IMG/VR virus record: IMGVR_UViG_3300032167_007646
DNA: 64,000 nucleotides
DNA from: a virus
Taxonomy: Duplodnaviria > Heunggongvirae > Uroviricota > Caudoviricetes
Strand: one strand, 5' to 3'
Shown here piece by piece: positions 15,203-16,922 of this stretch. The position numbers were made by a program, and so were the translations under genes. The notes beneath the pieces were generated by a model, which was not told the DNA's origin, made no database searches, and saw only the letters and a program-made list of their open reading frames with translations. The first letter of the stretch is position 1. Every line of letters starts with the position of its first letter.

Positions 15203-16922
15203 ATACTTTTTTTATTACAGGTACTACCACAGTATTACCCAATAAATCCATACCCTTATTATAATCTATATCTAATTTATAATCATCAGGATAACCGTCT
15301 AAACGTAATCCTTCTCTTAAAGTTAATTTACGAATACCTTTACCGTCTATAACACCTGTTTTATGAACATCAGTTGCTACAAGAGTTAAAGAAGGTTTAT
15401 TAGGGTCTAATATCTTTGTAAACTCATAACTTAATCTACCGCCATTTATATCATACAAAGTATTAGGATATGTGTCTAATTTTACTTCTTTAAGATAATT
15501 ACAACTTAACAAATACTCAATGTCTTTATCTAAATCTTCACCCTCATAAATCAATTTAAGTTCTTCTTTATCCAACCCTAAACCATCTTTCAAAGGCTGA
15601 CCTTTTTTCTTTGCTAAATCACTTCTTCTTCGTTCTGTAACTAACTTTTCCATTAACTTTTGCTGACTTTCTGTAGTAACACCTCTCAAACCTAAAGTCC
15701 AACTATGTATATTATTACTACTTCCCCTTTTATCTCTAATTGCTTTATCATATAAATAATCTACGGATAAATTATTTTTATCTAAATAATCAAACAACTT
15801 TATAGAAAAGTCACTATTTACACAAGGCTTACCAACCTCTTGAACATCTCCAAACTTACAATCTACCTTTTCAAAATCATCTAAACTAATATATCTATCT
15901 TTACAACCAACAATATAAATTCTTCTTCTTAATTGTGGTACACCAAAATCACTTGCTTGTAATACTTTCCAAGTAACTTTATACCCTAATTCTTCAAGTA
16001 CATATAATATTGTTTCTAATGTTTTTCCAATTGTTTTACCTAATTTTTTATCTTCTTTACTTAAATCATGAATAACAAGATTTTCCACATTTTCTAACAA
16101 GAAATATTTAGGACTTTTTTCTTTTAATATACGAGCCACTTCAAAGAAAAGAGTTCCACGAGTATCTTCAAAACCTGCCCTTTTACCTGCTGCACTAAAA
16201 GGCTGACAATTATGTACTATTATATCATTTGCTGTATAAGAATTATCTTCTTTTACACATAGATTATAAACTTTTGTTCTCCTACTTACTGTCTTAAATT
16301 TACCTCTAACTCTAACCCAAAAATATTTATTATCTTGACTATATACCTTATCTAAATATTTTTCAGTCTTTTGTATTAACTCAATAGGTATACCTACAAG
16401 CATACCCTTCTTCAACTCTCCAGCTTTTACCCATTCTGGTTCTTGCTTTTCTTTACTTTCCAAAACTTCTGGTAAAGGTGTAGTTATGGTATAAAATGGA
16501 TGATTTTCAGTAGTTCCTATCAAAATATTATTTTCCAAACTAATATTATAATAACTATCTACTGATTGTTCCATAATTTCTTCTACTTCTTTATATGTAT
16601 TTGTATGAGTTAATACTTTATCTCCTACCTTAACATCTCTTATTTTCTTATATCCTATTTCTGTAAATACAAGAGTTTCACCTATAAAACAAGGAAAACC
16701 TGCCAAAAGCATATCAAAATTAGGAATATCTTTTCCTTCTATTTTTGTAATATCTCCAACAATATTATCTTCACCAAAATTATCTTTATAAACTTTTAAC
16801 GCATGTGGTTTTATTTCAGAAGTAAGAACACACTCACCTTTTATACCCTTATCTTTTAATGCTTGTTCTAAACCAAGTCTTATTCCACCCATACCTGCAA
16901 ATAAATCTATATACTTAAACAC
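15177..16922 (-). CDS. DNA (cytosine-5)-methyltransferase interrupted by a 161-aa mini-intein at the catalytic Pro-Cys motif
   Basis: Motif I '[10 protein letters not shown]'. Motif IV is split: 'GFP' | intein | '[10 protein letters not shown]'. ENV motif 'LLENVENL'. Full C5-MTase C-terminal half. Confidence 0.85.
   Translation of the reverse strand: [581 protein letters not shown]
16209..16691 (-). mobile_element. Mini-intein within the C5-MTase (residues 78-238); no obvious homing-endonuclease domain
   Basis: Block A '[13 protein letters not shown]...I'. Block B 'TENHPFYT'. Blocks F/G '[21 protein letters not shown]'. The next residue is Cys (+1). Confidence 0.8.

Follow-up and report, generated by a model that had tools for sequence, protein, structure and literature searches.

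Phage DNA methyltransferases are known intein hosts, and in actinobacteriophages their inteins show a patchy pattern of presence and absence (PMC5050341, PMC9957025, bioRxiv 10.1101/2025.01.02.630785). Kelley et al. 2016 (PMC5050341) reported inteins in the N6/N4 methylases (PF01555) of mycobacteriophages, and a 2025 actinophage survey (bioRxiv 10.1101/2025.01.02.630785) lists the C-5 methylase (IPR001525) among the intein hosts. Apart from this category-level listing in the preprint, we found in the searchable literature no explicit description of an intein site at the catalytic Cys of motif IV in C5 methyltransferases. Among the solved structures, gp41-1 (Protein Data Bank (PDB) entry 6qaz), the Ssp DnaB mini-intein (1mi8, 6frg) and the Mtu RecA splicing domain (2imz) have the HINT fold and the intein blocks A, B, F and G in common. 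Here we analyze a 64,000-nucleotide stretch of the IMG/VR virus record IMGVR_UViG_3300032167_007646 (the window, i.e. the whole stretch of DNA studied), in which a C5-cytosine DNA methyltransferase gene is interrupted in motif IV by a 161 amino acid (aa) insert. The actinophage inteins described in detail reside in N6/N4 methylases of phages with a high guanine-plus-cytosine (GC) content, whereas the element studied here has a GC content of 27%. Our results make it very probable that the insert is a functional class-1 mini-intein in an apparently orphan C5 methyltransferase gene, located on a low-GC element of probably about 0.4 Mb.

A Shine-Dalgarno-like sequence, GGTGGTGA, can be read a few bases upstream of the GTG start codon of the methyltransferase open reading frame (ORF; Table 1). 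The Pfam model DNA_methylase (PF00145) matched the precursor in two stretches that flank the insert (E=1.4e-75). Deletion of residues 78-238 resulted in a 420-aa protein in which motif IV is restored, as the initial annotation of this locus had claimed. The score of the NCBIfam model dcm (TIGR00675) was 314.8 bits for the precursor and 331.7 bits for the spliced sequence, where the match formed one continuous stretch (residues 4-415). The spliced sequence aligned with M.HhaI (E=9e-48) without gaps across the junction, the corresponding HhaI segment being AGFPCQAFSISGKQKGFEDSRGTLFF, and the Cys at position +1 (precursor residue 239) aligned with Cys81, the catalytic nucleophile of M.HhaI. Motifs I to VIII of M.HhaI (PDB 10mh) are collinear with those of the spliced product and both contain 'GFPCQxFS', whereas the target-recognition region of the window enzyme is much larger (the proteins have 420 and 327 aa, respectively). 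Motifs I (DLFAGMGG), IV (PC), VI (ENV), VIII (QLRRR), IX (RE) and X (GN) are present in this order in the spliced sequence and all are intact. An identical 581-aa protein is present on four independent metagenome contigs, which shows that the precursor is not an assembly artefact or a chimera.

The initial annotation, based on the letters of the sequence, had placed a 161-aa mini-intein at 16209..16691, exactly at the Pro-Cys of motif IV and hence at the nucleophile, with blocks A, B and F/G, a C-terminal His-Asn, a +1 Cys and no homing-endonuclease domain. Translation of the ORF showed that these coordinates are exact to the base: aa 78 is the first residue of 'CFIGETLVF' and aa 238 the last of 'IIVHN'. 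The other points held as well when relatives were compared. Close relatives were collected by a search of 5.8 billion proteins; 40 sequences were aligned (alignment A1), and 17 inteins were aligned separately (A2). The latter are 27-46% identical to the window intein, with a mean column identity of 27%, and yet residues C1, T10, T61, H64, V141, V146, H160 and N161 are invariant in all of them. Moreover, all 169 N-junctions of relatives begin with Cys. No homing-endonuclease family in Pfam matched the precursor, and the ORF list contains no alternative-frame ORF of at least 60 aa that overlaps the intein. A class 3 intein was considered and rejected, as Cys1 is present and the block-F Cys of the window allele (NLCV) is T, A or S in other alleles.

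Structure prediction pointed in the same direction. The gp41-1 intein was matched already at the sequence level (E=7.5e-5, phmmer against PDB sequences), and an AlphaFold2 model of the 161 residues reached a predicted local distance difference test (pLDDT) of 92.4 and a predicted template-modelling score (pTM) of 0.87; the block 16320..16385, a linker, was its part of lowest confidence (pLDDT 72). The best Foldseek match of the model in the PDB was again the gp41-1 intein 6qaz (E=7.6e-9, target-normalised template-modelling (TM) score 0.84, probability 1.00 for inteins/HINT domains), and other matches included a bacterial intein-like (BIL) domain, Ssp and Npu DnaB, Mtu RecA and Hedgehog. A model of the full precursor consisted of two well-folded parts, and confidence was low only at residues 75-79 and 239-254, i.e. 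at both junctions and the catalytic loop. Compared with the solved gp41-1, Ssp DnaB and Mtu RecA mini-inteins, the window intein has the HINT fold (target-normalised TM 0.79-0.84) and blocks A, B, F and G in common, but it resides in another host protein, is 17-24% identical to them, has a native Pro at position -1 and possesses about 20 extra linker residues at the place of the endonuclease. Its C-terminus, ...ANDIIVHN, is very similar to that of DnaB inteins. Together, the conserved blocks and the predicted fold indicate that the insert is a canonical class-1 mini-intein with a HINT fold.

The BIL domain of Clostridium thermocellum (2lwy) was the second-best match both by sequence and by structure, and a BIL or other Hint autoprocessing domain would cleave the precursor into two fragments without ligating them. 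BIL domains, however, are typical of proteins that are non-conserved and often secreted, where they occupy variable regions, and they lack both a conserved +1 nucleophile and orthologues with an empty site. The present host enzyme is cytoplasmic, and the insert, which ends in His-Asn and is followed by an invariant +1 Cys, interrupts a catalytic motif that is universally conserved. In addition, orthologues with an empty site and alleles bearing an endonuclease both exist at the same site, and cleavage alone would destroy the enzyme, in conflict with the purifying selection on the extein described below. We therefore consider cleavage without ligation highly improbable, and a mini-intein that ligates its exteins remains our preferred reading.

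Relatives with and without the insert allowed the site to be defined precisely. Besides 24 insert-bearing proteins of 562-586 aa, two of 788-794 aa (P0029 and P0031) were obtained, together with many proteins of 407-446 aa that lack the insert and whose identity to the window protein, over the full alignment, reaches 74%. In each of the 27 long proteins of A1, the window's included, the insert begins with Cys and ends with His-Asn, and the next residue is Cys. In the 13 intein-free homologues of A1, among them orthologues that are 72-74% identical, 0 residues separate the positions of P77 and C239, which excludes the normal target-recognition insertion that the initial annotation had named as the alternative. 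It is generally known that large variable regions do occur in C5 methyltransferases, and the insert might in principle be an ordinary lineage-specific insertion or target-recognition element that is not excised. The target-recognition region of these enzymes is, however, located between motifs VIII and IX, whereas the insert is located inside motif IV and has a HINT fold; with zero residues at this position in such close orthologues, there is next to no chance that an element of this kind is involved. At the DNA level, the junctions of the occupied allele read GCAGGTTTTCCT/TGTTTTATA...CATAAT/TGTCAGCCT and the empty allele reads GCAGGTTTTCCT TGTCAATCA; the empty site of allele P0028 reads GCAGGTTTTCCT/TGTCAATCATTTAGT. 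Locus L171 has the same gene order as the window (UvrD-NUDIX-175 aa-Dcm) and both its helicase and its methyltransferase are intein-free; the genes downstream of its methyltransferase differ from those in the window.

The inserts of P0029 and P0031 are 370-374 aa long and occupy the same position. Their approximately 215 extra residues hold the LAGLIDADG motifs LWYLAGRYLGDGWL and LLDGYLDSDGSY, and the mini versions retain a linker of about 20 residues where the endonuclease of P0029 and P0031 is located. The possibility that the insert of the window methyltransferase is a full-length homing intein was rejected, as it has 161 aa, about 215 fewer than those of P0029 and P0031, and gave no endonuclease match. 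In a neighbor-joining tree of the exteins, the empty alleles P0025, P0026 and P0030 are nested inside the mini-intein clade and the empty allele P0056 is sister to the endonuclease-bearing P0029. This patchy presence is what a homing cycle predicts, in which an intein is gained, its endonuclease is lost and the intein itself is then precisely lost. The window intein would then descend from a LAGLIDADG homing intein that targeted the same site and whose endonuclease was lost. Because it lacks an endonuclease, the mini-intein would be unable to home alone; it would mostly be inherited vertically together with the methyltransferase and only now and then be lost or gained among related elements.

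Several results bear on how the intein is maintained. In a comparison with the closest relative for which DNA is available, P0001 (locus L175, protein 95% identical), the ratio of nonsynonymous to synonymous substitution rates (dN/dS) was 0.062 for the intein (dS 0.46) and 0.057 for the extein (dS 0.54). Values of about 0.06 for both parts, at a dS that is not saturated, indicate that the intein is under purifying selection as strong as that acting on the enzyme. Strong selection on the intein is indeed expected if failure to splice inactivates a methyltransferase that is needed. Among 27 alleles, pairs with more divergent exteins also tend to have more divergent inteins (Mantel r=0.71, a value reached in 0 of 2000 permutations), which points to mostly vertical co-descent of the two, although the inteins evolve faster (mean pairwise identity 44%, versus 70% for the exteins). 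The GC content of the intein (26.9%) matches that of the window (27.5%) and, together with the correlated divergence, provides indications of a long residence of the intein.

Some observations nevertheless weigh against a functional intein in an orphan methyltransferase. First, the intein family models agreed only in part with the initial assignment: the NCBIfam model of the intein C-terminus (TIGR01443) scored 24.9 bits, above its cutoff of 15.6, whereas Pfam Intein_splicing (PF14890; 31.8 bits, cutoff 35.8) and NCBIfam intein_Nterm (TIGR01445; 20.7 bits, cutoff 24.5) stayed just below theirs, and a Hint match that also covered residues 77-238 was likewise sub-threshold. Second, the Pro at position -1 is the residue that blocks or slows splicing in most inteins tested (PMC6486613). 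Third, dN/dS values of more distant pairs were 0.46-0.85, but dS was saturated in these pairs and they were set aside for that reason. Finally, the orphan status of the methyltransferase is based solely on the failure to detect a partner endonuclease: no restriction enzyme was matched among the neighbouring genes in Pfam or PADLOC, a missing match being weak evidence, and by its context the enzyme looks like an orphan. The two family models just under their cutoffs, the unfavourable -1 Pro (PMC6486613) and the earlier loss of the endonuclease would all fit a splicing-dead HINT relic, in which case the precursor would never be processed and the methyltransferase would effectively be a pseudogene that travels with the element. 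Several findings argue against such a relic. None of the catalytic residues varies, even though the aligned alleles share only 27-46% identity with the window intein. A dN/dS of about 0.06 was obtained for intein and extein alike where dS is not saturated, and each of the 26 other related intein-bearing alleles in the alignment has retained an intact ORF. Moreover, no variation was seen at the -1 Pro, and the same site is occupied by an intein in no fewer than 58 further methyltransferase clusters. A dead relic is thus very unlikely; most likely, as the purifying selection suggests, the intein is maintained and probably still splices.

The -1 Pro deserves separate consideration. Natural and engineered inteins generally fail to splice, or splice poorly, when Pro precedes the intein (PMC6486613). 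Pro77 (codon 16692..16694) is nonetheless invariant in A1, and Pro was present at -1 in 73 of 79 N-junctions of relatives in methyltransferase hosts and in 27 of 90 junctions of relatives in other hosts (e.g. '...HP/C'). Presumably, this intein lineage is adapted to a -1 Pro. The presence of Cys1 and of the catalytic +1 Cys on either side of the junctions, in combination with the unfavourable Pro, could also be taken to mean that the intein is a conditional switch and not a passive parasite; redox state, metal ions or the time elapsed since entry into a host cell would then control splicing and hence DNA methylation. If this were true, the intein in the neighbouring helicase gene could provide coordinated post-translational control of the DNA metabolism of the element. 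We regard such a switch as unlikely; in a weaker and more likely version, this mini-intein lineage would simply tolerate Pro at -1 by nature. With its 161 aa, its -1 Pro and the strong purifying selection acting on it, the intein is a candidate proline-tolerant tool for protein engineering and, as the +1 Cys doubles as nucleophile of the enzyme, methyltransferase activity offers a simple read-out of splicing.

Based on the canonical class-1 pathway, which comprises an N-S acyl shift, trans-thioesterification, Asn cyclisation and an S-N shift, we infer that the precursor splices as follows. Translation would generate the 66.4-kDa precursor. Because the HINT domain keeps the Pro-Cys dipeptide apart from the remainder of motif IV and the catalytic loop, it can soundly be predicted that this unspliced form does not methylate DNA. 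Cys78, the first residue of the intein, would attack the carbonyl of Pro77 in an N-S acyl shift assisted by the Thr and His of block B, after which Cys239 would take over the N-extein by trans-thioesterification. Cyclisation of Asn238 would then release the 18.8-kDa intein, and an S-N shift would create a normal Pro-Cys peptide bond, resulting in a 47.7-kDa methyltransferase in which Cys239 would subsequently act as the nucleophile that attacks C6 of cytosine.

The prevalence of such inteins was determined by an exhaustive phmmer search with the intein alone against 1.84 billion cluster representatives (50%-identity clusters). This resulted in 3524 matches at E<=1e-3 and 429 at E<=1e-10; a word-indexed search with the intein alone returned two fragments only. 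The methyltransferase extein was also matched in 76 of the best 148 intein matches; in these, the match to the N-extein typically stops at query residues 77-83 and that to the C-extein resumes at 76-77. Both junctions could be located in 58 proteins, whose inteins range from 152 to 374 aa (median 343 aa), 45 of them having at least 300 aa and eight being mini-inteins of less than 200 aa. The intein ends in His-Asn in 57 of these 58 proteins and is followed by Cys in all 58. Judged by sequence, the Pro/Cys site of motif IV is thus interrupted by an intein in at least 58 methyltransferase clusters.

The same site is occupied in cultured phages, namely in Erwinia phage vB_EamM_Y3 gp050 (KY984068; SPPC/FTENT...VVHN/CKGFS), Escherichia phage UE-S1 gp076 (ON568341; GFPC/FPAGT...VVHN/CQAWS) and Lactobacillus phage Nyseid (MG765276; GFPC/SPAGT...IVHN/CQDIS), as well as in the IMG/VR viral contig L125. 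In GenBank the three phage proteins are labelled 'DNA-cytosine methyltransferase' only and their inteins are unannotated. The window protein is 35-38% identical to the UE-S1 and Nyseid records and 31.6% identical to that of Y3 (tblastn). These four inteins and those of the at least 58 clusters are homologous to the window intein and share its insertion point, P/C...HN/C followed by Q or K, any residue, F, W or I, and S, with Cys1, His-Asn, the +1 Cys and the -1 Pro. They differ in that most of them have 310-374 aa and include a LAGLIDADG endonuclease, whereas the window intein is a 161-aa mini-intein. A second intein site in the methyltransferases is located after motif VI, (L or V)WENV/C, and accounts for six of the 79 N-junctions plus two junctions in proteins outside that set; the proteins with this site are P0123, P0143, P0163, P0221, P0249, P0262, P0134 and P0210, and inteins are present at both the PC and the ENV site in, for example, P0123, P0163, P0262, P0134 and P0210.

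The window intein is therefore a further member of a widespread and poorly annotated intein family at the motif IV site and not a new kind of element. The feature reported in the initial annotation is real, but it is less unusual than it had been taken to be, since many public sequences have an intein at this position. Motif IV of C5 methyltransferases emerges as a heavily used intein site, also in cultured jumbo phages, and the present locus is a clear but expected case, as inteins are preferentially found where phages and other mobile elements encode the catalytic motifs of enzymes for DNA metabolism. The 10 kb around the gene gave no megablast match to phage records, and a scan of GTDB genomes with the single protein gave none either. 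A profile scan of GTDB representative genomes detected intein-free relatives only, about 45-50% identical; two apparently long matches of that scan, L025 and L079, turned out to be intein-free.

Table 1. Positions of the methyltransferase gene, its predicted intein parts and other features of the window
Feature	Position	Strand	Description	Evidence
Intein-containing C5-cytosine DNA methyltransferase precursor gene	15177..16922	-	581 aa, 66.4 kDa, GTG start	ORF list, PF00145, dcm
N-extein, aa 1-77	16692..16922	-	Motif I (DLFAGMGG) to ...LLAGFP; ends in the -1 Pro of motif IV	P77 invariant in 40-sequence alignment A1
Predicted class-1 mini-intein, aa 78-238	16209..16691	-	161 aa, 18.8 kDa; between Pro and Cys of motif IV	Absent from orthologues
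Intein block A	16662..16691	-	Cys1, predicted nucleophile for the N-S acyl shift	C1, T10 invariant in A2
Intein block B	16491..16517	-	GTTENHPFY, T61-x-x-H64 motif	T61, H64 invariant in A2
22-residue linker	16320..16385	-	Where P0029/P0031 hold the LAGLIDADG domain (~215 aa); read as deletion scar	A2 columns about 120-345
Intein blocks F and G	16209..16274	-	Ending His160-Asn161	V141, V146, H160, N161 invariant; TIGR01443 above cutoff
+1 Cys codon TGT, aa 239	16206..16208	-	Predicted splicing nucleophile, then catalytic Cys of motif IV (PCQ)	HhaI alignment; C239 invariant in A1
C-extein, aa 239-581 and stop codon	15177..16208	-	Rest of motif IV (CQPFS), ENV (VI), QLRRR (VIII), target-recognition region, RE (IX), GN (X)	
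Second mini-intein, in UvrD-type helicase gene 18072..20912	19476..20105	-	210 aa; GDDSQ/C...VLVHN/CIYSFRG	Pfam Intein_splicing 48.5 bits
N6_N4 methyltransferase	8443..9276	-	About 6 kb from the C5 enzyme	PF01555, E=4e-30
Na+/H+ exchanger	11649..12875	-		
SLH-domain protein	22368..24617	-		
MacB/ABC/HlyD efflux system	24631..28168	-		
Flotillin	31113..32681	-		
L,D-transpeptidase	33424..34821	-		
934-aa protein	50119..52923	-	Helicase, D5-like region and C-terminal HNH-like match	PHROGs 16, 323, 1891

The second mini-intein in the window is present in a UvrD-type helicase gene (Table 1). The intein-free helicase orthologue of L171 reads GDDFQ/SIYSFRG, so that the +1 residue is Ser when the site is empty and Cys when it is occupied. 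A common origin of the helicase and methyltransferase inteins was considered and rejected: a hidden Markov model of the methyltransferase mini-inteins missed the helicase intein, and BLASTP aligned the F/G blocks only.

All window ORFs of at least 90 aa that resemble real genes are on the minus strand. Genes for DNA and nucleotide metabolism include those for the UvrD helicase, a NUDIX hydrolase, thymidine and thymidylate kinases, a D5-like helicase, DnaD/RepL-like proteins, the N6/N4 methylase and radical-SAM proteins. They are interspersed with cell-type genes, among them an M23 peptidase gene and the membrane and envelope genes listed in Table 1 (from the Na+/H+ exchanger to the L,D-transpeptidase). 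No tRNA genes were detected in the window, and PHROG and Pfam scans of approximately 70 of its ORFs revealed no capsid, terminase or tail genes. The D5-like helicase gave weak matches to both phage records and megaplasmids of Ruminococcus albus, its best plasmid matches being the megaplasmids of Ruminococcus albus 7, and 395-kb and 399-kb contigs harbour syntenic relatives. The phage or mobile-element origin for which the initial annotation had argued on the basis of the two inteins is thus plausible but not established, given the absence of virion genes from the window and the 395-399 kb contigs of the relatives. The intein is likely to reside on an extrachromosomal element of large size, which would be a jumbo phage or a megaplasmid.

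The 3' end of the methyltransferase gene overlaps with a small Cys-rich ORF (14963..15202, minus strand; 79 aa, or 73 aa as called on contigs L001-L004), which had no family match. In L005 and L171, too, an N6_N4 methylase gene is located a few kb from the C5 enzyme gene, and in L172 such a gene is truncated by the contig end. Contigs with related methyltransferase alleles encode an anti-Pycsar Apyc1-like protein with a metallo-beta-lactamase fold (L172, 9962..10681) and a T4 gp30.3-like protein (L173/L174, 15767..16216), genes that hint at a viral lineage.

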